Virus record (IMG/VR): IMGVR_UViG_3300045988_090683
Length of the DNA: 40,045 nucleotides
Reading direction: 5' to 3' (one strand)
Source: a virus
Position numbers and translations under genes: made by a program. Positions 8,999 through 39,893 of the stretch are shown here, one piece after another. Numbering within the stretch: the first letter of the stretch is position 1; each line of letters opens with the position of its first letter. The notes beneath the pieces were generated by a model. It saw nothing but the letters and a program-made list of their open reading frames with translations, was not told the origin of the DNA and did no database searches.

Positions 8999-9565
8999 TC
9001 ACCTCACTGTTACCAATTTAAAAGATTTAGACTTGAATATGTCTTTATAAATGATTTCGTCCGTATAATCACCGCTGAACATGACCTTCCAATAATATGT
9101 ATAGTCAGCAGTAATAATCGCAGTCGGCGCTACTGTTACCCCTTGTGCTAACCTAATTACGCCCTTATCAGATACAGCATTTATCGGTGTCCCATTAGCA
9201 TATAATCTTAGGTTTTCAATATGTGCTACCGGTTCCCTAAAATCACCATACAAACGAACTGCTTGCCATTCAGATTGAGCTCCAGTTCCTAAACGAATGC
9301 CCTTTTCCTCAAAATCTTCTGGATCTAACCAAAGAAAAGGAACTGTACCGCCTTTTACTTTTGCATAGAACCCCATAATTTGCTTATGCTCCTCTGGAGT
9401 TAATATTGCAAATTCAGTAGTAATTGTATATTGCGGATACTGCCACGTTGTCATGGTACGCACCCGACCACTCCCAGTACGCTTTATTTTAGTATCCCAT
9501 TTTTGAGATTTTGTAGACTTCCACGCAAGGGATTTGATATCCGGAAATTTAATTAAATCTGCCAT
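8999..9565 (-). CDS. Distal tail protein (lambda gpM / GTA g12-like)
   Basis: 188 aa, immediately after the tape measure. The pattern FPDI...W.T.I.RTGSGRVRT...YP.Y resembles the conserved phage tail-region family found in this position. Confidence 0.6.
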   Translation of the reverse strand: MADLIKFPDIKSLAWKSTKSQKWDTKIKRTGSGRVRTMTTWQYPQYTITTEFAILTPEEHKQIMGFYAKVKGGTVPFLWLDPEDFEEKGIRLGTGAQSEWQAVRLYGDFREPVAHIENLRLYANGTPINAVSDKGVIRLAQGVTVAPTAIITADYTYYWKVMFSGDYTDEIIYKDIFKSKSFKLVTVR

Positions 9566-20452: not shown

Positions 20453-21865
20453 CTAATAAATATTGGTACGTGTTGACTTGTAGTCCGGTGCAGTCAGCTT
20501 TTCTGCAATACCTGTTAATGCGTCCGGAGCATCGTCATGTTCATTTTTGCCTTCACGTTGATAACGTGTGATAGCTTTATAAAAATCAGGCCATTTGTCA
20601 GCCCAGTTTATAGGAAAATAAATATGCTCCATAACCCAAGTTGCATTGGATAATATGCGAGCCTCTTTATTTTTAGATTGGTGGAACGCTACAACCTTTG
20701 TATAATTGCTTTTATACTCATCACGTAACAGCCGTGTAACCTGTCTTGCAAACCCTCTACCACCATTATTGCTTTCAAAATCTGCTACATTAACACGATT
20801 ACGATATAGCATTTCAGCAACAGCAGGTTCTGTTTGTTCCATTGCTGCTTTCGTAAATACAACGTCTAATATATAAGCCTCTTTGTTATAAATGCCATAC
20901 GTGATACTTGCTAACCAGTCCTCGCCAGTATCAGCCGTATCAGTGTAGTTTTTAATTTGAGTAAATAAAGGTTCGCCAGCTTCATTGCAAGGAATATGCT
21001 CATAGGTTTTCAATTCAGAATACAAGCACCCTTTTAAATCGATTGGTATTTGTTGATAGTTCGCACTGGCTATGTCCTCACCCATCGCCCTGCACTTTTC
21101 TTGGTAACTTTCATAAGACAATACATCGTCGCATAACATCGTTCCATCGTCTTGTAAGGCCTTCATAGTAATAACCTTTGCTTTATCCCCAAAGTGTTCG
21201 ATGGCCCTACCTGCTAGATCATCACTAGCCCAACGTGTCATGATGATTATAATCTTGCCACCTTCCTCGAGCCGTGAAAGCATAGTATTAGTGAACCAAT
21301 CCCAGTGCTTTGCCTTAGTGTTTTCGTTATAAGCCTCCTCGGCGTTCTTGATAATATCATCGATAATCAGAATAGAGGCACCAAAGCCTGTAGCGGTACC
21401 ACTAGGGGAAGTCGCGAGGTAACTATTATAACCACCTTCAAGCGACCACATATCCATGCTAGCATCGCCACGCTTGATACGTACGTTAGGGAATATGTCG
21501 GTATACACCACTCTGTTTTTATCAGCTTTAACTTCTTGAATGTCATTTCTAACATTCTTTGCGAATGTAGTTGATAGAGTTGTGTTATATGAACCTGTCA
21601 TGACTTTTTCAACAGGGTTCTTGCCAAGTATCCACTTGACGGCCATTTGAGCTGTACGACTTTTACCATGACGAGGTGGCATGTTCATTATAAGGACCTT
21701 TTGTTTAGGGTCCTCGTAAAAGTTCTGTATCTCATCACATAAATGAACTAGGTATTCACGTTCCTTTTTGTAAAAGTCAGGCGCCTGCAAGTGGCAATAA
21801 TAAAAAAACTCACGCCGAGCCAGCTCATATTTGAACTGTAGCATGAGTTCCGGGGTGAGTTTCAT
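20453..21865 (-). CDS. terL: Terminase large subunit
   Basis: Walker A-like MPPRHGKSRT, Walker B ILIIDDIIK and C-terminal nuclease-type acidic motifs (ADTGEDW, HDDAPDAL). The gene follows the small subunit. Confidence 0.9.
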   Translation of the reverse strand: MKLTPELMLQFKYELARREFFYYCHLQAPDFYKKEREYLVHLCDEIQNFYEDPKQKVLIMNMPPRHGKSRTAQMAVKWILGKNPVEKVMTGSYNTTLSTTFAKNVRNDIQEVKADKNRVVYTDIFPNVRIKRGDASMDMWSLEGGYNSYLATSPSGTATGFGASILIIDDIIKNAEEAYNENTKAKHWDWFTNTMLSRLEEGGKIIIIMTRWASDDLAGRAIEHFGDKAKVITMKALQDDGTMLCDDVLSYESYQEKCRAMGEDIASANYQQIPIDLKGCLYSELKTYEHIPCNEAGEPLFTQIKNYTDTADTGEDWLASITYGIYNKEAYILDVVFTKAAMEQTEPAVAEMLYRNRVNVADFESNNGGRGFARQVTRLLRDEYKSNYTKVVAFHQSKNKEARILSNATWVMEHIYFPINWADKWPDFYKAITRYQREGKNEHDDAPDALTGIAEKLTAPDYKSTRTNIY

Positions 21866-21869
21866 ATCC

Positions 21870-22247
21870 TCACCCCTCTTTATCGATTAGCTTTTTAAGT
21901 TCCTCTGTTGTTACCCCTTCAAGTGGGTTGCTTTGAACAGTAGTATTGACTTCCATTTCTGTTTTATCAGTCTGTCCAAGAAATTGCTTGCCAAGAAATA
22001 TTGCCATAGTTGCAGATCTATCGGCCAGCTTCCACTGTTTTCGTCGTAAGCTAATCTTGCCTGCACTTCTCTTTTCACGAAAAACATCGGAAAATGTCTT
22101 GCCATACGTTCGCTTGCACCACGCATTAAGTGTCTTATCGCTAACCCCTAGAACGAGGGTAATTTCTTCCTGCGTAGCTTGAATTTGGCACATCGCTTCG
22201 AACTGTTCTTGTTTGATATTCTTTTTTGGTCGCCCCATTTTAGCCAT
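21870..22247 (-). CDS. terS: Terminase small subunit (HTH type)
   Basis: 125 aa with N-terminal GRPKK and an HTH (EEITLVLGVSDKTLNAWCKR). It lies immediately upstream of terL. Confidence 0.7.
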   Translation of the reverse strand: MAKMGRPKKNIKQEQFEAMCQIQATQEEITLVLGVSDKTLNAWCKRTYGKTFSDVFREKRSAGKISLRRKQWKLADRSATMAIFLGKQFLGQTDKTEMEVNTTVQSNPLEGVTTEELKKLIDKEG

Positions 22248-22250
22248 ACG

Positions 22251-23105
22251 CTAACCCCCTTTCTTATATTTCTGAGATAATATCTTTGGTGTACAGCACT
22301 CCCATTTGACTTGATGATGCATACGCATATGCTTATCGCCCATCGCAGCTACTTTTACACATGAAGGCGAGTACATAACAGAATAAAAGGACTTAACGAA
22401 CGTACCACTATCTAGGTACATTTCGGTTAAGCCCCCTTTATTTTTCTGAGTCTGCCCTTGATTGAGCATAAATAACATAGTTGTAAATATCAAATGTCCA
22501 GTTTCGCCATATCTTACATACATGGTTGTATCTTCATTGATACGACCAAAGAATTTATAAGGCTTATCTGTTCTACAGAAAAAACTGTTCATCGCTTTGC
22601 GCAGTAACTTCCTTTTGAAGTTCCCATTATCTACGCCACCAATAAAGTCGCCACCTTGCGCAAGTGCAACAGTTAGTGCGCCTGTATCATCTAGGAATTT
22701 AAGCATACATCGAAATACATCATCTAACCGCTTTGTCTTACACGACAATAATTTATCGCCAACTTGGTAACGATGCGCAAATAAGTTGTAATCATCGTCC
22801 AATACAAGGAAGTGTGTTAAGCCTAACTCCGCAGCTATGGTATGACAATAATTACGAGCATATATAACGCCCTTTAACTTAGGTTCTAAATCGGCAGGGT
22901 CCACTAAAACAGATGCAGCTTGTTTACTAAATATCCTAACAATATCTGTACCATATCTATCGACATAAGATTGTCGCATATCGTCCTCATCATCAACAAT
23001 GATATAAATCTTACCGGTATAACCTTGGTCGATTAATGTTTGATACGTTTTAACATTGCCAGCCCTGCCATGACTTAAAATGAATACAGCAAATTTTTCG
23101 TTCAT
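22251..23105 (-). CDS. GT-A-like (DxD) putative glycosyltransferase, paralogue 2
   Basis: Aligns end to end with the upstream neighbour (FILSHGR, IYIIVDDED, YGTDIVRIFSK, IYARN, FLVLDDDYN, RYQVGDKL). ATG 23105 has SD AGGTGGA and an ATGA overlap. No TM segment or signal peptide is present. Confidence 0.6.
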   Translation of the reverse strand: MNEKFAVFILSHGRAGNVKTYQTLIDQGYTGKIYIIVDDEDDMRQSYVDRYGTDIVRIFSKQAASVLVDPADLEPKLKGVIYARNYCHTIAAELGLTHFLVLDDDYNLFAHRYQVGDKLLSCKTKRLDDVFRCMLKFLDDTGALTVALAQGGDFIGGVDNGNFKRKLLRKAMNSFFCRTDKPYKFFGRINEDTTMYVRYGETGHLIFTTMLFMLNQGQTQKNKGGLTEMYLDSGTFVKSFYSVMYSPSCVKVAAMGDKHMRMHHQVKWECCTPKILSQKYKKGG

Positions 23106-23959
23106 TTCTTCCACCTGTCTGACAAGATCATTGGATAATAGTTGCTCATATATTTTTTAGTGAACGTATTACTATCTAATCGCATTGCAATCGTAGCAGG
23201 TACATAAATAAGTGTTCCGAAGTGTCGATAATAGTCATTGCTTTTATCGTAATGTCCTTCAATACCGCCACCCTCTTTGTTTCTACCTTCAACAATTGCG
23301 CTTTGTTGTAATAAGCCACATGAAAACATCATTTTTCCTTGTTGATTGTATAAAATGCTTGCTGCCAAATCCTCCTGGCACTCACTTGCATAACGTATTC
23401 GCTTTCCAGCTCGGTATAATCCGATATTAAATACAACACGTTTCATGCCTTCTGCTACGATAGGTGCTTTCACGCCACCCATGAAAGCAATGTGCGGTGC
23501 AATTCCTATACAATATATTTTATCAGACGTTTTCATATATTCAGATAACGCAATAAAGCAATTACCGACATCATGTACGTTCTTACTTCTTAACTTATCA
23601 CCATCTGGATATCGATAAGTAATGCTATCGATATCATCATCAGCAATAACGAAAAAGTCGTACCCTTTTTCTAAAGCCAAATCATATGCAGCATTTCTTG
23701 CATATACGGCATGTAATCCAGTAGGAGATTGAACACCACTATCGCAACTATCCATGTATCTTTGCTTATCAAATACAACTATTCTGTCGCCATAGTTTTG
23801 AATATATTCAGTTAGCGTTGTATCAAGATCATCACAAACAATAAATATATCGTCAGTTTCTACACCACCTGAACGCAGTAATTTATATGTTAGCTGTTCA
23901 TTAGGTCTGCCATGAGAAATAATGAAATAACCGATTTTAGTCTTGTTCGTTTTCTTCAC
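23102..23959 (-). CDS. GT-A-like (DxD) putative glycosyltransferase, paralogue 1
   Basis: Motifs FIISHGR, IFIVCDDLD, YGDRIVVFDK, VYARN, FVIADDDID and RYPDGDKL. The GTG start at 23959 has SD GGAGG 9 nt upstream. The fold assignment is inference from motif layout only. Confidence 0.6.
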   Translation of the reverse strand: MKKTNKTKIGYFIISHGRPNEQLTYKLLRSGGVETDDIFIVCDDLDTTLTEYIQNYGDRIVVFDKQRYMDSCDSGVQSPTGLHAVYARNAAYDLALEKGYDFFVIADDDIDSITYRYPDGDKLRSKNVHDVGNCFIALSEYMKTSDKIYCIGIAPHIAFMGGVKAPIVAEGMKRVVFNIGLYRAGKRIRYASECQEDLAASILYNQQGKMMFSCGLLQQSAIVEGRNKEGGGIEGHYDKSNDYYRHFGTLIYVPATIAMRLDSNTFTKKYMSNYYPMILSDRWKK

Positions 23960-24674
23960 CTAAAATCGCCTCCAAGCTACTCGATAATTGTACATATCCA
24001 TTTTTGATAGCATCGTCATAATCTATAATAACTAATGCAGACCGTTCCATAAGGTCTTGCATTTCTTCGCTAGCATTAGCATAATATTCGGCAATGCGTT
24101 TGTAATTAAATTGGTTATGACGTTGTGCAGCCTTGCGAAGAAATTCTTTTTCCTTTTCACTTACATTGCTATCGTCAATTTCGATAAGCAAAGCGATTGT
24201 TTTATCATCATCTAGGCAACTTTCGAGCGGTACCACTTCTCCGGTAGGTTCATATTGTGGAATGTTAATATCAGCAGTGTACGTGTCGTCAGGTTCTTCG
24301 AGCTCATCTTCTTCATTCACAAACCCAAAGTCTGACATATCTACTTCGAGAATGCCTTGTAATTCTTCAAGTAATGCGTCCTGGTCCCATTCAGCGAACT
24401 CGCTCACCTTATTATCGGCAAGTCTAAAAGCCTTTACCTGTTGCTCTGTAAGATCATCTGCCACAATACAAGGTACTGTTTTTAGTTTCAACTCCTTAGC
24501 GGCCCTATATCGTGTATGACCGGCAATAATAATGCCGTCCTTATCAATTACGATAGGTACTTTGAAACCGAATTCACGAATAGAATTAGCAACAGGTGCA
24601 ACGGCACTATCATTTTTTCGTGGATTATTTCCATACGGTTTAATGTCCGCTATATTCTTTTCAACGATATTCAT
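23937..24674 (-). CDS. ParB/Srx N-terminal-domain protein with an acidic C-terminal half
   Basis: IKPYGNNPRKN ... IIIAGHTRYRAAKELKLKTVPCIV is a ParB-like nuclease/CTP-binding-type motif. The C-terminal half is very acidic and contains no recognisable methylase motifs. Confidence 0.75.
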   Translation of the reverse strand: MNIVEKNIADIKPYGNNPRKNDSAVAPVANSIREFGFKVPIVIDKDGIIIAGHTRYRAAKELKLKTVPCIVADDLTEQQVKAFRLADNKVSEFAEWDQDALLEELQGILEVDMSDFGFVNEEDELEEPDDTYTADINIPQYEPTGEVVPLESCLDDDKTIALLIEIDDSNVSEKEKEFLRKAAQRHNQFNYKRIAEYYANASEEMQDLMERSALVIIDYDDAIKNGYVQLSSSLEAILGEENEQD

Positions 24675-24862
24675 TTTAGTACGCTCCTTTTACTAGATTT
24701 ATAACGATTGTGTTCCTTCTTCATTGTGCAGCCACTATATCGACAAGCAGCTTCAGAAGTAAGAAAAGCCTGGCAACGTCTATCAAATACGATAAAGTTT
24801 GCTATACATTTGCCACGCTTATTGTTAAGGCAATTCGTAGCCTTGCATTTGATTGTAGTCAT
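24671..24862 (-). CDS. Small Cys-rich protein (DUF1540-like)
   Basis: 63 aa; IKCKATNCLNNKRGKCIANFIVF resembles the C..C...C.A..I.V pattern. It is the first ORF after the late promoter/terminator and has an ATGA overlap with the ParB-like gene. Confidence 0.55.
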   Translation of the reverse strand: MTTIKCKATNCLNNKRGKCIANFIVFDRRCQAFLTSEAACRYSGCTMKKEHNRYKSSKRSVLK

Positions 24863-25011: not shown

Positions 25012-25040
25012 ATTATAATATGGCCGTTTTGCAAAGTAAA
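25012..25040 (-). promoter_or_regulatory. Sigma70-like promoter upstream of the late-operon terminator
   Basis: On the minus strand: -35 TTTACT (25040-25035), a 17-nt spacer, and -10 TATAAT (25017-25012). It lies just downstream of the ArpU-like stop codon. Confidence 0.5.
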
Positions 25041-25063: not shown

Positions 25064-25582
25064 TCAAGCTGCTTGAACCCCCCAAAGTAAGATGCTTACG
25101 TCCTTTTCAGCCCTTTCGAGGTAATTATATACAGTTCGTGTTGATACATGTTTTGCATCGGCTATTTCTTCAACTGACATTTTTTCGATATAAAAATCAA
25201 TCAAAATGTCAAAAAAGGGTTCGCATCGATGTTCACATTGTGTACGATACACGGCCAGCATGCTATCGATATGTTCAATAATCAATTCGGTACGCCTCTT
25301 ACTAGAGGCAATCGCCTCGACACGAAGTAAACCCCTACGATTAAATACTTCGTTAAGCACAATTTGAAGATCACTAGGAACGCTATTTTCTACACTTGCT
25401 ATCGCATGTTCGCAGTGTTCCTTCAATTCATTATAGCCATTCAACAGCCTTTTTGTATTTTCCCTTGCCTTTTTACAGTTCTGTTCGTGCCTGTGTTCTT
25501 CCAACTTTTTATACTTATCAATAGCACTTTCACTGGCGATTTTTATTATTTCTTCGATTGTCCATTCCCTGACTGTTTCCAT
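25064..25582 (-). CDS. ArpU-family / sigma-70 region-4-like late transcriptional regulator
   Basis: 172 aa. The C-terminal MSVEEIADAKHVSTRTVYNYLERAEKDV is a sigma r4-type HTH. This is the typical position upstream of the packaging genes in Firmicute phages. Confidence 0.75.
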   Translation of the reverse strand: METVREWTIEEIIKIASESAIDKYKKLEEHRHEQNCKKARENTKRLLNGYNELKEHCEHAIASVENSVPSDLQIVLNEVFNRRGLLRVEAIASSKRRTELIIEHIDSMLAVYRTQCEHRCEPFFDILIDFYIEKMSVEEIADAKHVSTRTVYNYLERAEKDVSILLWGVQAA

Positions 25583-32467: not shown

Positions 32468-34120
32468 CTAGCTTACTTGTGCTTGAATATCTACTGTTAC
32501 CGGTTCAATCTTTAACTGATTAGCCCATGTTAAAACAGTGTTATTGACGTCTTTATTTTTAGAAACACATTGATTGCCAAACAATTTTGCCTGTACCAAC
32601 TTTGTGAATTTTTCTTTACTGTCGATATCTTTTGTTAATTCAAGACACGCTACAGGTTTCATGTTATCGTCTGTTACAACCACAATTGCTGTGTTCCCTT
32701 TCATTACTCTATCTTTATAAGATCCCACGCAGTTTTTAAGCTGCTTACCGATTATCATTAAATCTGCCGCAGTCTTCGGAACTACAAAATGCATTCCGTT
32801 TACGTCAGCATTTAGTGCTGGTATAGCTGGCAAATTAACATCGCCATACTCTTGCTTGTTATATACATTGATAAGCTCGGCATGTAATGCTTTTAGTTTG
32901 AACTTTTTGCCCCAAAACTTATCTCGATATTTGAGTATTAACTCGGAATACATTCTTACGCAGTCCTCAATGTCTCGGAAGTCCTCGGACAATATCCAAC
33001 GCAATGCAGCAGGCTCGCCATATCTAGCAATCATTATTTGCCAAAACTCTTTTGAACCATAGATATGTAATTTCATCGATTTTCTAATATCCTTAGCGCA
33101 ATGGACTTTGCCAGTGTATTTATACTTTTCATCATCAGGAAGGTTATGACGATTTAAATCAACAATCGTACGCCTGCAATTTTCATCTTTAAATAGACTT
33201 AATACGTTGGATAGTACTACCGACATAGGATTTTTTGCCATAGCCCTACGTAATGCCTTGCTGTTAGGTGATTTATAAACAGTCCGCAAAGCCTCTTGAA
33301 AGTTCATTCCTTTTTTTGTTAAATCCAATACATCACTATCAAATGGAATAGATGTAATTAATCTTGAATAGTAATCGTTCCAGTAGTCAGCCCCTCGTTG
33401 AATACTTATAACGTTTGGCATATCTGGTGCTGATAGTTTCAAGATCATGTTTAACAGCATAGAAAAGTGGTAGCCGTTATCTTCATTAAAAGATGGTGCT
33501 ATATATACATCACTAGTGGAATACCCATAAGCCTTTTTAATCCTACGTTCAAATGCTAATCGCAAAGACCTGAACACATTATTTAGTGGTTTCCTATTAA
33601 TGTCATGCATGGCATAAGATTTACCTAGATAAGTTAGTACTTCCATGACTCTTTTATGGTGTATATATTCGGGCGTAAGTTCATGCTTATCGCGATTATA
33701 GTCAGTATAGGCGGCTTTTTTTCTTTTAAAATCAAATCGTAACGTTTCTTTGCGAATGCCTTCATCAATAAAGGTGCCATCATATCGCATGGTAATAGCC
33801 CTATACGTAAATCGTAAGTCGAGATAATTTTTAAACTCTACAACATCGGCCCAAACTTCTAACGGTATAAGGCTTTCATCATCACGCACGAATAAGATTT
33901 TGTTTCTAAATGGTTCACTATGTACGCCACAATTAGGACATGTGAAGTACTTTGCAGCAGTTGTATAACCATAACTGTAACTATATTTACGTTTCCATTT
34001 ACCACCGAAAGCAAAGTTGCAATCGGTATGGTAAATAGTAGTGAATAGTGCATCGTAGCCATTTTCTAAAATCACACTGTCAAACATTCTAGGGATATAT
34101 ACCCTTGCTAATATGTCCAT
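32468..34120 (-). CDS. Large hypothetical early protein (N-terminal CPNCG Zn-ribbon-like motif; C-terminal PcfJ-like region)
   Basis: 550 aa. The C-terminal LMIIGKQLKNCVGSYKDRVMKGNTAIVVV resembles my recollection of the PcfJ-like family signature. No catalytic motif was recognised. Confidence 0.6.
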   Translation of the reverse strand: MDILARVYIPRMFDSVILENGYDALFTTIYHTDCNFAFGGKWKRKYSYSYGYTTAAKYFTCPNCGVHSEPFRNKILFVRDDESLIPLEVWADVVEFKNYLDLRFTYRAITMRYDGTFIDEGIRKETLRFDFKRKKAAYTDYNRDKHELTPEYIHHKRVMEVLTYLGKSYAMHDINRKPLNNVFRSLRLAFERRIKKAYGYSTSDVYIAPSFNEDNGYHFSMLLNMILKLSAPDMPNVISIQRGADYWNDYYSRLITSIPFDSDVLDLTKKGMNFQEALRTVYKSPNSKALRRAMAKNPMSVVLSNVLSLFKDENCRRTIVDLNRHNLPDDEKYKYTGKVHCAKDIRKSMKLHIYGSKEFWQIMIARYGEPAALRWILSEDFRDIEDCVRMYSELILKYRDKFWGKKFKLKALHAELINVYNKQEYGDVNLPAIPALNADVNGMHFVVPKTAADLMIIGKQLKNCVGSYKDRVMKGNTAIVVVTDDNMKPVACLELTKDIDSKEKFTKLVQAKLFGNQCVSKNKDVNNTVLTWANQLKIEPVTVDIQAQVS

Positions 34121-34488: not shown

Positions 34489-35013
34489 TTATTTATTGAT
34501 TAATGTATCAAGTTCTTCGATAATTTCTTGCGATAAATCTTCTGCAGATGGTTTTCCGGAAACGCCGTGTTTACGAAAAATATCAAGTGCAGCCTTGGCA
34601 CCTTCTTGACCGCTGTCCTTCAACCAGTTTTTGAAGTTTGTCCAATATACATGAGGATCAATTTCCGCCGTTTCAACGTCTAACTCATTTTCGGTTGATT
34701 CCTCAACTTCTTCTGCTTTAACCTCTATAGGTTCGCCATCAAAGTTCGTAACAGGAACTTCTGCAACCTCTTCGGCTGGTTTCTCTTTTACCTCAACAGG
34801 TTCTGTTTGAGGTTCTTCAACTTTGTTTACGACCTCAACTACTTTTTTTGCTACCTCTTCGATGTGTTCAGGCTTTACTTCTTGTTTAGGAGCCTCTACC
34901 ACTTTGACTGTTTGTGGTTCATCAACGGTTTTAGGGTTTAGCATTTCATTATATTCATTAATTTTCTTTGCCAAGTCTTTTGCATTTTTGAATTCGATTG
35001 TAATTTGGTTCAT
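34489..35013 (-). CDS. Hypothetical highly acidic early protein (E/V/P-rich central region)
   Basis: 174-aa ORF with an ATGA overlap with the methyltransferase gene. Confidence 0.6.
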   Translation of the reverse strand: MNQITIEFKNAKDLAKKINEYNEMLNPKTVDEPQTVKVVEAPKQEVKPEHIEEVAKKVVEVVNKVEEPQTEPVEVKEKPAEEVAEVPVTNFDGEPIEVKAEEVEESTENELDVETAEIDPHVYWTNFKNWLKDSGQEGAKAALDIFRKHGVSGKPSAEDLSQEIIEELDTLINK

Positions 35014-35531
35014 TGTTCTGTCTCCTTATATTCATATTCAAAATGAATGCTATTTTGTTTTGAATTAATCAGCATAACTATATTGTGATAAGCTGGTGTT
35101 TTAGAATTGTCGCCATTTTCATTAATAAACTTAATACGCTTAGTTGGTATATATACCCCTATCCGCGTACGGTGGAATAATTTATGTCTTTGTACCCCCC
35201 CCAGTGTATCTATAGGCAATAGCAGTACACTGGGCTTGCCAAGATCAATGCAACGTTCTATGATTTTATCCTTTATGCTATACGGTGGGTTAGATATTAG
35301 ATAATCGAACTCATAATCACGAGTTAAAAAATCTTGTATGCCCCATATAGCTTGTTTGTCATATTCTGCTGTAATAATCTTTGTGAAATTACTTTCAGCA
35401 GTATCGAATGGCAATAAAATCCTATCACCAGCATTTGGTGGGAATACCTTTAACATTGTTCTGACTACATAAGCTGGTGTATACCATTCGTCAGAATAGC
35501 TGTTATTTATAAGGGCATGTTTAGTTGCCAT
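35010..35531 (-). CDS. Orphan DNA N6-adenine methyltransferase (phage Dam-like small family)
   Basis: SDEWYTP near the N-terminus and the catalytic ISNPPYS motif. No restriction partner is present in the window. Confidence 0.8.
   Translation of the reverse strand: MATKHALINNSYSDEWYTPAYVVRTMLKVFPPNAGDRILLPFDTAESNFTKIITAEYDKQAIWGIQDFLTRDYEFDYLISNPPYSIKDKIIERCIDLGKPSVLLLPIDTLGGVQRHKLFHRTRIGVYIPTKRIKFINENGDNSKTPAYHNIVMLINSKQNSIHFEYEYKETEQ
35195..35202 (-). repeat. G8 homopolymer (C8 on the plus strand) inside the methyltransferase ORF
   Basis: It reads CTG GGG GGG GTA (LGGV) in frame. It is the longest G/C run I found in this AT-rich window. Confidence 0.9.
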
Positions 35532-36750
35532 TTTTCAATGTAGCCACTTCTTCCGTTAAAGATTGAACTAATTTTTCAAGTTGACTAATACGACTATTGT
35601 CTGTTTTAGCCTCTGGCACATAGTCAGAACTTTTGCCAACTCTAAATGCAGCATTAATAGTAATTTGAGTTTCACTGCCAAGACTAACACCAGCACCAAA
35701 CATTGTTTTTTCGTTAGGTCTATAAAAAGCACCTAGTGCGACTGCATTTTGACTTTTATATCGACCATAAGATAAGGCAAATGACATTTTATCGTTTTTA
35801 TTAAAATCGAGTGGGTGCAGACCAGCCAATGCAGCGGAGCTTGCTCCCAACTTATTAATACGACGTTCTGTTGTATTGATTTTGTTATTCAATTCATTTC
35901 TAATAACAGTTGTATTTGTATCGATTTTTTTCTTTAAATCTGTAATATCTTTAGTATTAGTGCTAACACCGATATCAATCCTATTAATGCTGCTATTAAT
36001 AGTTCCAATGCTATTAGTATTTCGATTAATTTGTCGAGCATGTTCGCTTGTTGTCCCCCCTAACGAATTAATTTCATCAATAGCTGCATACAGCTGGGAG
36101 CCATTAACAGCATCGAGGCTGTCAGCTTCAATACGTCCTGCTGAGACGTTTTGTAACTGACGGTTATAATTATGAATATTGCTATATGTATCACTTTGTT
36201 TAGATCCAAATGACACGCTAGAATTTGGCTGTTCTCCTGCAAATACATGGGTAACGCCGTTAATTTGCATTTGCCCGAAGCCAACAGGTGCATAAGTTTG
36301 ACTATTAGTGCCAATCGCTACGCTGTTTTGCACAGGTGCACTGGCGTTATTGCCAATAGTAACAGCGTCAATGCCTCTTGTTACGGAGTGTGTACCAATA
36401 ACAATTGAGCCCTGGTTATCTACAACAGAATTTGCGCCAATTACTGTTTGCTCTTGATGGGCTCCAATATAGTTGTTATATCCAATAGCAGTTGATTGTC
36501 CGCCTGCAACAGTGCCATTGCCACCACCAATAACGATGGTATCGTTTCCAGTAATTTTGTTATCACGGCCAAGTGCAACAGAATTCGTAGCATTAACCAC
36601 TGTATTTGCACCACTTGCAATAGAGTTGTAGCCAGTAGCGACAGGTGCATTGGTATTAGGTTCTACTGGTCCTGTAACTACACCGTTAGCCATAACATTT
36701 ACTGCTAGTGCAGCAATAGTGGAAGTTGTTACGATAATTTTTTTATTCAT
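35521..36750 (-). CDS. Trimeric autotransporter adhesin (YadA-like) with a post-anchor coiled-coil extension
   Basis: Signal peptide MNKKIIVTTSTIAALAVNVMA; head repeats NSIASGANT / NSVALGRDN / SVAIGTNS; neck LQNVSAGRIEADSLDAVNGSQLYA; beta-barrel anchor GASSAALAGLHPLDF...AAFRVGKS; then 35 extra residues (35524-35628) with heptads. Confidence 0.85.
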   Translation of the reverse strand: MNKKIIVTTSTIAALAVNVMANGVVTGPVEPNTNAPVATGYNSIASGANTVVNATNSVALGRDNKITGNDTIVIGGGNGTVAGGQSTAIGYNNYIGAHQEQTVIGANSVVDNQGSIVIGTHSVTRGIDAVTIGNNASAPVQNSVAIGTNSQTYAPVGFGQMQINGVTHVFAGEQPNSSVSFGSKQSDTYSNIHNYNRQLQNVSAGRIEADSLDAVNGSQLYAAIDEINSLGGTTSEHARQINRNTNSIGTINSSINRIDIGVSTNTKDITDLKKKIDTNTTVIRNELNNKINTTERRINKLGASSAALAGLHPLDFNKNDKMSFALSYGRYKSQNAVALGAFYRPNEKTMFGAGVSLGSETQITINAAFRVGKSSDYVPEAKTDNSRISQLEKLVQSLTEEVATLKNGN

Positions 36751-38073: not shown

Positions 38074-38442
38074 ATGAAAACTATGGGACAACGCATACAA
38101 GAATTGCGAAAATACAACAAAATGACCGGCGAAGAGTTAGGGAAAAAATTAAACGTCGCTAAATCGACTGTATCATTATGGGAAGGTGGTTCTCGCACAC
38201 CTAACACTGAAATGTTGCAAAGTATCGCAAAGGTATTTGATGTTTCCACTGATTATTTGCTAACAGGCAACGAGCCTACTCCAAAAGGATATTACCAAGA
38301 TCCAGAAACAGCTGAGTACGCAGAATATTTACGTACACGGCCAGAAGCTAAAATGCTGTTTTCAGCTTCCAAAGATATAAGCAAGGAAGAAATGGAAGAG
38401 GTTGTAAATTATATCGAGTACCTTAAAACAAAACATAAATAA
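38074..38442 (+). CDS. cI-type XRE-family repressor (ImmR-like)
   Basis: IQELRKYNKMTGEELGKKLNVAKSTVSLWEGGSRTP is an HTH_3 motif. The gene is divergent from cro and followed by an ImmA-like gene. Confidence 0.85.
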   Translation: MKTMGQRIQELRKYNKMTGEELGKKLNVAKSTVSLWEGGSRTPNTEMLQSIAKVFDVSTDYLLTGNEPTPKGYYQDPETAEYAEYLRTRPEAKMLFSASKDISKEEMEEVVNYIEYLKTKHK

Positions 38443-38462: not shown

Positions 38463-38747
38463 GTGATTGTTAATGTTATTCATTGTGGCCTGCCTAAAGG
38501 TAAGGCCACTACTACAACAACAGACGAACACGGAGTATACGTTATCGCAGTTAATAAAGATTTAACAGGGGACGAGCTGCGAAGGGAATTAGCCCACGAG
38601 CTCCGCCATATTATTAATGATGATTTTCACATCGACCAGCACGTAAACCTGGTTGAAAAGATGATAAGGCAATCAGCCTCAAATAATGAATTTGAGCATA
38701 TAGATTTTTATCATCATTTTTTGGATAGTAACAATAATGTTATATAG
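38463..38747 (+). CDS. ImmA/IrrE-like zinc metalloprotease (short form)
   Basis: HEXXH motif in YVIAVNKDLTGDELRRELAHELRHI. The GTG start has SD GGAG 9 nt upstream. The gene lies immediately downstream of the XRE repressor. Confidence 0.65.
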   Translation: MIVNVIHCGLPKGKATTTTTDEHGVYVIAVNKDLTGDELRRELAHELRHIINDDFHIDQHVNLVEKMIRQSASNNEFEHIDFYHHFLDSNNNVI

Positions 38748-38770: not shown

Positions 38771-38819
38771 ATCTATATTATCGAACATATATTTGAATTT
38801 TAAGGAGATATATAACATT

Positions 38820-39893
38820 ATGGCAACAAAACGCACTGACGGAAGGTATACCATTAAGAAAACGTTTAATGGCAAGCCTAAATACTTTTACGGTAAAACA
38901 AAAAAAGAGGCACGAGAAAAGCTCCAACAATATGAAAAGGAGTTTTCTTCGTGCCTCAACTTCAACGGCGCTATTACATTGTATGAATGGATTAATACTT
39001 GGCTAACAATTAAAGAAAAAACAATTACGATAGCCACGTTAAACAGTTATAAGGGAATAATTAGCAGATATATATTACCTACAATAGGTGGTATCAAGTT
39101 AGCTGATATACGACCAGCTCAACTACGTAAAGTATTCGACAATATGCAGCACCTATCAACGCGAACTATCACATATACTATGACTATACTTAACTCTGTA
39201 CTGGAATTGGCTGTACGTGATGAGATAATACCTAAAAATTATATGAAAAATATAGATAGACCAAAGCATGTTAAAACAAAAGAAATGATAACATTAAACG
39301 CTAATGAGATAAAACAATTTTTGAATGTCATAACTAACAGCGAACATTATGCGTTATTCAAATTAGCATTTGCCAGCGGTATGCGTAGATCAGAATTATT
39401 AGGCTTAACATGGTCGAATGTTCATTTTAATAAATCAACTATATCAATTGAACAAACTGCCCTACGAATTAATGGAGGTGGCGTCCTTTCCCCTACAACT
39501 AAAACGGATAGCTCACGACGTACAATTTCAATAGATGCCGATACTATGGCAATATTACGAAAACATAAAACCACCATTGATAAACGCATGTTAGCCACTC
39601 CAAATTGGACTAACCATAATTTGGTATTTCCTGGTATACATGGAGGGCCTAGAAATCCTGACGAAGTAAGTAGATTGTGCAAGCATTATGCAAAACTCAT
39701 AGGCAAGCCAGCTTTTAGCATGCATGGTACTCGGCACACACACGCCACACTACTTATTGAAAGTGGCGCCAATATAAAAGCAGTACAAACTAGATTAGGT
39801 CATGCCTCTTTTGAAGAAACGATGAACACGTATTCGCATGTTACACCTACTATGGAAGATGATTTGCTCGAGAAAATAGAAAAGATATTTTAA
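38820..39893 (+). CDS. int: Tyrosine site-specific integrase
   Basis: C-terminal catalytic region HGTRHTHATLLIESGANIKAVQTRLGHASFEETMNTYSHV (R..H..R..H..Y pattern). I prefer ATG 38820 over the track's TTG 38793. Confidence 0.9.
   Translation: MATKRTDGRYTIKKTFNGKPKYFYGKTKKEAREKLQQYEKEFSSCLNFNGAITLYEWINTWLTIKEKTITIATLNSYKGIISRYILPTIGGIKLADIRPAQLRKVFDNMQHLSTRTITYTMTILNSVLELAVRDEIIPKNYMKNIDRPKHVKTKEMITLNANEIKQFLNVITNSEHYALFKLAFASGMRRSELLGLTWSNVHFNKSTISIEQTALRINGGGVLSPTTKTDSSRRTISIDADTMAILRKHKTTIDKRMLATPNWTNHNLVFPGIHGGPRNPDEVSRLCKHYAKLIGKPAFSMHGTRHTHATLLIESGANIKAVQTRLGHASFEETMNTYSHVTPTMEDDLLEKIEKIF

Follow-up and report, generated by a model that had tools for sequence, protein, structure and literature searches.

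The window analysed here, a 40,045-nucleotide (nt) stretch of viral DNA (IMG/VR record IMGVR_UViG_3300045988_090683), carries at positions 22251-24862, on its minus strand, four translationally coupled genes that lie directly upstream of the terminase genes terS and terL. In the direction of transcription, these genes encode a Cys-rich protein of 63 amino acids (aa) (24671-24862), with which the transcription unit begins, a partner protein of 245 aa with a ParB-like N-terminal domain (23937-24674), and two members of the TET-associated glycosyltransferase (TAGT) family, called here TAGT_A (23102-23959; 285 aa, with a GTG start and a GGAGG ribosome-binding site) and TAGT_B (22251-23114; 287 aa when read from a GTG). 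Successive genes overlap by 4, 23 and 4 nt, and a gap of 3 nt separates the last of them from terS. For TAGT_B, the ATG at 23105 seems a more likely start than the GTG; it comes with an AGGTGG ribosome-binding site, overlaps the upstream stop as ATGA and gives a protein of 284 aa, the length proposed in a first-pass annotation of this DNA made from the sequence alone. That annotation had placed the four coupled genes at the same coordinates and described the last two as paralogues, and both points were borne out, since TAGT_A and TAGT_B share 27% identity over their full length (E 3e-29). All the motifs that it had quoted for the two proteins (SHGR, IxIVxDD, YARN, DDD and RYxxGDKL) are present. 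Hydropathy, taken as the maximum over 19 residues, stays below 1.5 in all four proteins, indicating that they have no transmembrane segment and agreeing with the cytoplasmic location suggested earlier for the two paralogues. From the sequence comparisons described below, this cassette appears to be a TAGT module that lost, or never had, an enzyme creating the acceptor, and that is tied to a dedicated partner domain.

Both glycosyltransferases match the TAGT family of Pfam (PF20691), the family that had been suggested for testing, far above its cutoff of 27.5 bits: TAGT_B scores 145.8 bits (E 2.1e-42) and TAGT_A 76.2 bits (E 4.5e-21). They also match phrog_842, labelled 'beta-glucosyl-HMC-alpha-glucosyltransferase' (E 4.5e-76 and E 4e-20, respectively), and NCBIfam holds no model for either of them or for the Cys-rich protein. 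A phmmer search of PDB sequences with TAGT_B returned nothing. The AlphaFold2 (AF2) model of TAGT_B (pLDDT 88.7, pTM 0.88) was compared with the PDB using Foldseek, and all 48 matches at E <=1e-3 were GT-A-type nucleotide-sugar enzymes, among them TarS, COLGALT1, LH3, WrtF, SpsA, GalNAc-transferases, GnT-I, glycogenin, SunS and AvpGT. The TM-scores were just 0.4-0.5, indicating that TAGT_B has no close relative with a solved structure. The model thus predicts a GT-A fold for TAGT_B, as anticipated by the first-pass annotation, which had named the lack of a nucleotide-sugar transferase fold as an outcome that would count against its reading. The same fold is expected of TAGT_A by homology to TAGT_B.

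The active-site signature of the family is intact in both proteins. Residues R17, D106-D108 and E194-D195 (TAGT_B numbering) are invariant or near-invariant in the family and are present in the two paralogues; in an alignment of 57 sequences, D106 and D108 of TAGT_B are invariant and D107 is conserved in at least 90%. The DDD (DxD) motif occupies aa 106-108 of TAGT_B (22791-22799, minus strand) and aa 107-109 of TAGT_A (23633-23641, minus strand), a column that is invariant in both family alignments, and in TAGT_A SHGR starts at aa 15 and ED corresponds to aa 196-197. This R...DDD...ED signature is that of phage GT-A enzymes that glycosylate 5-hydroxymethylcytosine (5hmC) in DNA and of the base-J transferase (bioRxiv 10.1101/2023.12.21.572611). 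Finally, TAGT_B is basic, with an isoelectric point (pI) of 8.8, as is the family as a whole (median pI 8.4).

The first-pass annotation had proposed a survey of how often such genes co-occur with a ParB-like gene. We gathered 115 loci (27 from reference genomes, 80 from IMG/VR, 4 from cultured phages, 3 from metagenome contigs, and the window itself) and mapped both families in them by means of profiles built from the window proteins. Partner and TAGT were both found in 113 of the 115 loci, the two exceptions being cut by contig ends, and in almost all loci the partner gene lies immediately upstream of the TAGT gene, usually overlapping it. Across bacteria and archaea, the module accompanies terminases of at least three distinct families and capsids of unrelated types, and its hosts span diderm, monoderm and archaeal cells with unrelated envelopes. 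Judged by these comparisons, the cassette is one instance of a very widespread two-gene module. At one locus (L058, 9284-10852), a single open reading frame (ORF) of 522 aa holds a complete partner and a complete TAGT, a natural fusion or an assembly error seen in one instance. The Cys-rich protein (6 Cys, pI 10) had been counted as part of a four-gene unit. Its homologues were found in 14 of the 115 loci, window included, all of them Veillonella-phage relatives, and we rejected it as a member of the module because it is restricted to this one clade of phages. It has a weak match to DUF1540 (18 bits, below the cutoff) and also matches phrog_33034.

The two glycosyltransferases of the window had been viewed as a tandem duplication. 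Their paralogy stands, while their equivalence does not: sequence comparison points to TAGT_B as the universal core enzyme and to TAGT_A as a lineage-specific accessory of some Veillonella phages only. TAGT_B is the orthologue of the sole glycosyltransferase in single-enzyme cassettes, being 90% identical to that of locus L044 and 88% identical to that of locus L038, and the partner genes of these two loci are near-identical to that of the window. When the DNA of the window was aligned with L038 and L044, TAGT_A appeared as a segment of about 860 bp, cleanly present or absent, that separates the partner gene from TAGT_B. Orthologues of TAGT_A occur only in a subset of the Veillonella-phage loci, where they are 55-67% identical to one another, and nothing outside this group exceeds about 37% identity with it. 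TAGT_B, for its part, yielded more than 7,000 homologues from the protein collection searched, all of them belonging to PF20691. The extra TAGTs found in other lineages are non-monophyletic.

The partner protein matches PF02195 (40.6 bits for a cutoff of 26.3; E 2.7e-10) and, over its full length, phrog_620 (E 9e-67); thousands of homologues are at least 59% identical to it over the full length. Its ParB/Srx nucleotide-binding domain covers aa 1-100 (24375-24674, minus strand) and contains NPRK as box I, GHTR as box II and ADNK as box III. This domain aligns with Spo0J (6sdk, E 7e-8), and Foldseek superposed it on the CTPgammaS-bound ParB of M. xanthus (7bnr) with a root-mean-square deviation of 1.8 A over 93 residues and 33% identity, a serine kinase and Srx being also matched. 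The model therefore supports the ParB N-domain claimed earlier, which we take to be a genuine ParB CTPase fold. Compared with the canonical residues (Q/R in box I, GERR in box II, N in box III), box II deviates by reading GHTR; in 51 homologues G52, H53 and T54 are invariant and R55 is conserved in at least 90%. The phosphate-binding equivalents R19 and R55 and the box III residue N88 are conserved, and the catalytic Glu is replaced by a His. Nucleotide binding by the partner is therefore plausible from its sequence, and hydrolysis is uncertain. Neither the Pfam scan nor the AF2 model revealed a helix-turn-helix (HTH) parS-binding domain in the partner, no ParA-type ATPase was found among the scanned ORFs of the window, and the partition model TIGR00180 gave 44.8 bits, under its cutoff of 58.45. 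The Pfam scan also agreed with the earlier remark that this ParB-like protein carries no methylase domain. In prophages, fusions of the ParB CTPase fold with DNA methylases are common, and the ParB/Srx fold binds various nucleoside triphosphates (NTPs) and occurs in small-molecule kinases too (PMC12704722).

Downstream of this domain, the protein is strongly acidic. The acidic tail had been noticed from the start, and the net charge was found to be -29, of which -16 comes from a linker and -13 from a C-terminal domain. The very acidic linker is predicted to be disordered (pLDDT <50 at residues 123-139 of the AF2 model) and bears the motif YTADINIPQYE (24249-24281, minus strand). Y132, P139, Q140 and Y141 are invariant across the alignment of 51 homologues, and both tyrosines remain so in an alignment that includes partners consisting of the C-terminal domain only. 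The C-terminal domain itself (aa 151-245; 23940-24224, minus strand) is helical, about 95 residues long and rich in invariant positions (RH..FNY..IAEYYA..MQ.LME.SALVIID..AI.NGY). A profile of this domain gave only spurious coiled-coil-like matches in the PDB (adhesin A, E 0.005), and Foldseek of the partner matched the N-domain only, leaving the C-terminal domain with no credible relative in the PDB.

The distribution of the two domains indicates which of them is constant. In the survey loci, 27 partner ORFs match only the linker motif and the C-terminal domain; most of these short partners are internal to their contigs and have their own short N-terminus, while contig ends or frameshifts truncate a few. 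The 139-aa protein that precedes the TAGT of Vibrio phage pv27 is of this C-terminal-domain-only type. Overall, about 80% of the partners have the ParB nucleotide-binding domain and the remainder lack the ParB fold. A tblastn search with the C-terminal domain of the window returned 28 phage records, and a TAGT lies directly downstream in all 28. Among 1.84 billion representative proteins, the domain forms 1,166 clusters at 50% identity; in the best 150 of these clusters it is C-terminal in nearly all proteins, which are 117-342 aa long, and it is not fused to any other enzyme. From these sequences, the constant partner of TAGT appears to be the C-terminal domain, not the ParB fold.

Several cultured phages carry the pair, namely L. 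gasseri phi jlb1, L. delbrueckii c5, lambdoid phages of E. coli and Salmonella, Nocardia NTR1, Vibrio phages of 191 kb, Porphyromonas phages and the haloarchaeal virus HHTV-2. In c5, which is a cos phage, the two genes are the first ones after cos, and in the large Vibrio phages the module stands between primase and helicase genes. Of 5,426 complete E. coli genomes, 889 also carry an intact pair, whose genes are named ynaK ('ParB/Srx family N-terminal domain-containing protein') and 'GREB1-related protein' or 'hypothetical protein'. There, the intact pair (hits H41-H51; locus L006, 8223-9939) is flanked by trkG and the lysis genes at one end and by terS at the opposite end. K-12-type Rac prophages retain a ynaK-ydaY remnant only. 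The module is dispensable, as internal deletions fuse or remove both genes in Ld17 and Ld25A, two phages of the c5 genus. The deletion or decay of the module in these phages, the K-12 remnant and the presence/absence of TAGT_A all indicate an accessory status. Ld17 (L124, 75-833) and Ld25A (L125, 90-515) are virulent L. delbrueckii phages and offer ready-made isogenic-like controls.

In various lineages, other genes follow the pair. Directly downstream of the TAGT gene, an NAD-dependent epimerase/dehydratase is encoded in 5 loci and radical SAM proteins in 18 loci, plus a second type of them; at L117, a radical SAM gene is followed by one for a sugar-phosphate nucleotidyltransferase (NTP_transferase, PF00483). 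The radical SAM proteins matched no specific NCBIfam family. These epimerase, radical SAM and NTP_transferase neighbours suggest custom donor sugars. Tailoring genes of this kind lie after the pair at L117 (6001-9433), L081 (10881-11843), L060 (3012-4034) and L069 (3287-4129). A DnaN-like clamp gene was seen in the neighbourhood of 11 loci, and directly downstream of the pair in L084. Some loci hold two complete partner-TAGT pairs, and at L082 (7794-13218) a C-terminal-domain-only protein is followed by five TAGT genes, four of which are 48-57% identical and one divergent. The TAGTs of L096 (9446-10867), L023 (6498-7901) and L066 (9449-10840) have an N-terminal extension of about 187 aa, which we considered as a possible partner domain and rejected; it contains a Walker-A motif (GASCSGKST), has no Pfam match and is P-loop kinase-like. 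The distant TAGTs (about 26% identity) of Aeromonas phage 65 (L121, 3686-4882) and Vibrio phage 1.124.O (L123, 4692-5855) have no adjacent partner-domain gene. They share an N-terminal extension of about 105 aa (W..MP.F.QEKQ ... TDKTKSIWFP), which was tested as a fused partner domain and is not one.

To look for an enzyme able to supply a hydroxymethylated base, we scanned the ORFs of about 90 aa or more over the whole window against Pfam or PHROGs. The scan found no TET/JBP protein (PF12851-like), no thymidylate-synthase-like hydroxymethylase, no other 2-oxoglutarate (2OG) oxygenase, no radical SAM protein and no sugar-nucleotide enzyme, and the T-even set (dCMP hydroxymethylase plus a GT-B alpha- or beta-glucosyltransferase) had no Pfam or PHROG match in it. 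This is in line with the first-pass annotation, which had seen no such hydroxymethylase or TET/JBP gene in the window and had concluded that a DNA route, if there is one, differs from those of hydroxymethylcytosine (hmC) and hydroxymethyluracil (hmU). Likewise, the annotation of the complete c5 genome (31.8 kb) lists no oxygenase or hydroxymethylase, and neither family is among the recurrent neighbours of the module in the 115 loci. The hosts of the module include many strict anaerobes (Veillonella, Clostridia, Bacteroidales), where a dioxygenase that depends on O2 could not function. Since no enzyme making a 5-hydroxymethyl-pyrimidine was found, an acceptor in DNA would have to exist in ordinary DNA, as an exocyclic amine or another site.

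A characterised member of the family is the TAGT of phages T2 and T6, which adds a second glucose to glucosyl-hmC in DNA (PMC13216743). It has in common with the window enzymes PF20691, phrog_842, the GT-A fold and the DxD motif, and it is one of two glycosyltransferases that build a DNA disaccharide (PMC13216743). Unlike them, it depends on hmC, which a dCMP hydroxymethylase provides before replication, and on a GT-B alpha-transferase for the first glucose; neither gene exists here. A tblastn search with TAGT_B returned no T2 or T6 record; the TAGTs of T4-like and other large phages that it did return are about 26% identical, and those examined have a different N-terminal extension instead of the partner domain. 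Alpha- and beta-glucosyltransferases are missing from 288 of 753 TAGT-encoding phages, and the function of these 'solitary' enzymes is yet to be defined (PMC13216743). Also comparable are the clusters of C5-methyltransferase, 5mYOX and glycosyltransferase genes (Burke 2021; Pyle 2023/2024), in which phage GT-A enzymes with the R...DDD...ED signature, adjoining a C5-methylase and a 5mYOX, glycosylate 5hmC after replication. These clusters often stand near ParB-like or terminase genes and contain several glycosyltransferases (producing mono- to trisaccharides) and sometimes epimerase or kinase genes. They always contain the dioxygenase that creates the acceptor, whereas the cassette and about 110 relatives are without one. 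Co-occurrence of ParB and glycosyltransferase genes was noted before (PMC8256090; bioRxiv 10.1101/2023.12.21.572611), and we found no paper testing a ParB-TAGT pair without an oxygenase. Calling the system undescribed, as had been done, is therefore fair for the function of the oxygenase-less form and does not hold for the family, which has a name and a published link to ParB.

A phage ParB-like protein is required for the activity of a subclass of thymine dioxygenases on double-stranded DNA, and its C-terminus is predicted to lie near that of the enzyme (O'Toole et al. 2026, PMC13229309). Like the partner, it consists of a nucleotide-binding domain, a disordered linker and a C-terminal domain, without an HTH, and its gene adjoins that of a DNA-modifying enzyme. 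The client is a 5mYOX there and a glycosyltransferase here, and ParB176 needs both of its domains, whereas the C-terminal domain alone suffices in many lineages of the module. The same N-domain is also found in fusions of ParB with DNA methyltransferases (PF02195 plus PF01555), as indicated by the match of aa 1-128 of the partner to phrog_498 (E 1.3e-43). In these fusions the enzyme is a methylase and is part of the same chain, while here it is a separate protein that would be linked through the C-terminal domain. One such fusion, of the N6/N4 methylase type, stands immediately upstream of the ParB-TAGT pair at L055 (7924-12361), where an actin-like ParM/ALP protein comes after the pair. In eukaryotes, GREB1 has a homologous glycosyltransferase domain, and the E. 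coli prophage orthologue is called 'GREB1-related protein' by the NCBI pipeline; GREB1 differs in being a large cytoplasmic protein without a ParB-like partner. The base J glucosyltransferase of kinetoplastids (JGT) is a GT-A DNA glycosyltransferase with the same active-site signature, which acts, unlike what is proposed here, on 5-hydroxymethyluracil (5hmU) made by JBP1/2, and whose sequence similarity to the phage enzymes is very low.

We propose, with about even confidence, that the module is a partner-assisted DNA glycosyltransferase that works late in infection with nucleoside diphosphate (NDP) sugars from the host and needs no hydroxymethyl precursor. During lytic growth, the C-terminal domain of the partner and the tyrosine-containing motif of its linker would dock on the transferase. 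Where it is present, the ParB nucleotide-binding domain would dimerise on its nucleotide and hold or activate the enzyme on double-stranded phage DNA, a role modelled on that of the ParB-like activators of thymine dioxygenases. Once the phage DNA has been replicated, and before or while it is packaged, TAGT_B would take a sugar from a host NDP-sugar and attach it to this DNA, and TAGT_A could extend or diversify the glycan. The glycan may in turn shield the phage DNA from host nucleases, DNA glycosylation being a classic means for phages to evade restriction. In its most complete form, which we put forward only tentatively, the system would be self-sufficient, placing sugars on an atom already present in ordinary DNA, such as an exocyclic amine, without any hydroxymethyl handle.

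Several observations lead us to favour DNA as the target. The characterised viral members of the family act on DNA and have the same active-site signature, the ParB fold of the partner has parallels with DNA methylases and with the thymine dioxygenase, the module sits in packaging or replication gene blocks and can have DnaN-like clamp neighbours, and the transferases are basic. Gain, loss and diversification of the module follow a pattern expected of an arms race. That real sugar chemistry takes place is further suggested by the NDP-sugar enzymes, radical SAM proteins, kinase-like fusion and up to five TAGTs that relatives have added.

Other points weigh against this proposal. To our knowledge, no glycosyltransferase acts on unmodified DNA, and the characterised ones all use a pre-installed hydroxyl; every case of DNA glycosylation that we know of first installs it, through a hydroxymethylase, a hydroxylase or a TET-like dioxygenase. 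The partner is strongly acidic and has no recognisable DNA-binding domain, and since about a fifth of the partners lack the ParB fold, the argument drawn from this fold does not apply to the whole family. The pairing in 113 of 115 loci was observed in loci selected by their similarity to TAGT_B (at least 40% identity), with near-duplicates included, so that they are not all independent. In a large survey of glycosyltransferases, moreover, about 65% of the contigs had neither 5mYOX nor ThyS, and the authors left them out, their link to DNA being less obvious. Lastly, GREB1, the animal protein with a TAGT domain, O-GlcNAcylates a protein, ERalpha (PMC7968844).

This animal precedent leads to the view that the module glycosylates a protein, either the partner itself, on its linker tyrosines and in a glycogenin-like manner, or a packaging or virion protein of the same operon. 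The two invariant tyrosines, located in a disordered acidic linker and kept even without the ParB fold, would suit such a role, the operon also encodes terminase, portal and capsid proteins, and protein-directed GT-A enzymes (GalNAc-transferases, COLGALT1, glycogenin, SunS) are among the Foldseek matches of TAGT_B. Still, we consider a protein target unlikely. The large Vibrio phages have the module among replication genes and not structural ones, the variety of terminases and capsids linked to it means that no structural protein could be its common partner, and, for the conserved linker motif, docking is no less probable a role than that of an acceptor; both the ParB fold and the methylase analogy speak for DNA. 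The acceptor might instead be a small molecule or an envelope component, such as a nucleotide, a defence signal or an intermediate of teichoic acid or lipopolysaccharide, whose glycosylation would counter a host defence or exclude other phages. TarS, SpsA, WrtF and the nucleoside glycosyltransferase AvpGT are indeed among the top structural neighbours of TAGT_B, TarP, encoded by a prophage, is the best PDB match reported for phage GT-A enzymes (bioRxiv 10.1101/2023.12.21.572611), and the ParB/Srx fold has the NTP-binding and small-molecule-kinase relatives already mentioned, in agreement with the serine kinase and Srx matches of the partner. We find such an acceptor rather improbable, in view of proteins devoid of a membrane anchor or a signal peptide, of a gene placement that speaks for late lytic and not lysogenic expression, and of the same module being found across diderm, monoderm and archaeal hosts. 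The cassette lies within the packaging operon, about 14 kb from the integrase, and does not match the profile of lysogenic-conversion genes of the Gtr/TarP type, which are expressed by the prophage, membrane-associated or directed at the envelope, and usually near the attachment site.

Even if DNA is the target, the enzymes might follow the conventional route and glycosylate 5hmC or 5hmU made by an unrecognised phage enzyme or by the host. The window, which was scanned from integrase to lysis genes for every sizeable ORF, and the complete genome of c5 both argue otherwise, as do the strictly anaerobic hosts and the finding that no extra family is shared with the module in the 115 loci. On the other side, all characterised phage DNA glycosyltransferases use hydroxymethyl- or hydroxy-pyrimidines, 5mYOX-like sequences that escape the Pfam TET/JBP model are counted by thousands (PMC13229309), a ThyX gene stands upstream of the module in one relative (L115), and several ORFs of the window, such as 34489-35013 and 32468-34120, are unannotated. 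On balance, this route appears to us quite improbable. We give even less credit to an accessory of packaging or partition that would transfer no sugar and would, for example, mark or organise DNA concatemers for use by the terminase. The conserved position directly upstream of terS/terL, the place beside cos in c5 and the ParB fold would fit this role, which is at odds with the catalytic DDD and ED residues being invariant across the family, with the recruitment of NDP-sugar enzymes by relatives, with the loss of the module from viable phages of the same genus and with a partner devoid of a parS-binding HTH.

If DNA is the target, the module would produce a new modification of base or backbone, with effects on restriction, CRISPR, sequencing and phage therapy in common gut and oral bacteria. 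Were the system self-sufficient as well, this would amount to a new DNA-modification chemistry in temperate phages of gut, oral, dairy, marine and haloarchaeal hosts, carried by prophages in about one sixth of complete E. coli genomes. The C-terminal domain would then represent a new type of glycosyltransferase activator or of DNA-targeting subunit, with the additional TAGTs and the sugar-tailoring genes serving to vary the glycan in the course of an arms race. If the target is not DNA, the label 'beta-glucosyl-HMC-alpha-glucosyltransferase', used in cultured-phage records and for phrog_842, is wrong, and phage glycosyltransferases gain a new class of targets. In either case, culturable carriers are at hand (E. 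coli prophages, phi jlb1, and c5 with its natural deletion relatives Ld17 and Ld25A), and a small C-terminal domain as the constant partner gives biochemistry a concrete handle.

The small terminase gene terS (21870-22247, minus strand; phrog_309 E 1.5e-13, phrog_606 E 1.4e-10) is followed by terL (20453-21865, minus strand), whose product has Terminase_6N and Terminase_6C matches and a T7 RNaseH-like domain. Upstream of the cassette, the regulator at 25064-25582 (minus strand) had been described as ArpU-type; it matched no ArpU model and is a sigma-70 region-4/HTH protein (Sigma70_r4_2, 25.8 bits for a cutoff of 25.7; phrog_1558, E 9e-40), which by its position is probably a late activator. 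A terminator had also been placed between this gene and the cassette, and we looked for a terminator-like site on the coding strand of the 200-nt gap and found none. The same gap contains a promoter-like site, TTTACT-17-TATAAT (25012-25040, minus strand), which is a consensus match only, such matches being no more frequent than in shuffled sequence.

The window as a whole is a nearly complete genome of a temperate siphovirus, from integrase to lysis genes. All its genes are on the minus strand except for a lysogeny module at the right end, which comprises a CI-like repressor (38074-38442), an ImmA-like peptidase (38463-38747) and, outermost, a tyrosine integrase (38793-39893); holin and endolysin genes are at the left end. 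Relatives of the window TAGT are present in V. parvula genomes at 83-84% identity and in other Veillonella assemblies at 60%, which points to Veillonella as the host. When 20 kb of the window were compared by megablast with 50,697 phage records, nothing matched, indicating that no closely related phage is annotated among them. Besides the usual structural genes, the window encodes a DnaD/DnaC-type replication module, RecT, an SbcC-like ATPase, an MBL hydrolase, RusA and a dUTPase.

Four other genes of the minus strand deserve mention. A 173-aa Dam-like N6-adenine methyltransferase is encoded at 35010-35531 (below threshold in Pfam; phrog_799, E 3e-26), and various DNA methylases are also found near the module in the relatives L001, L002, L051 and L055. 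The replication/recombination block contains the gene of a 550-aa PcfJ-like protein (32468-34120; phrog_16315, E 6e-181). In the early region, the gene at 35521-36750 encodes a YadA-like trimeric autotransporter adhesin of 409 aa with head, stalk and anchor domains, and may serve lysogenic conversion of a diderm Firmicute host. Finally, a glycoside-hydrolase-like protein (8999-9565; phrog_2913, E 8e-54), encoded between the tape-measure and the distal tail genes, is probably a tail-associated lysin.

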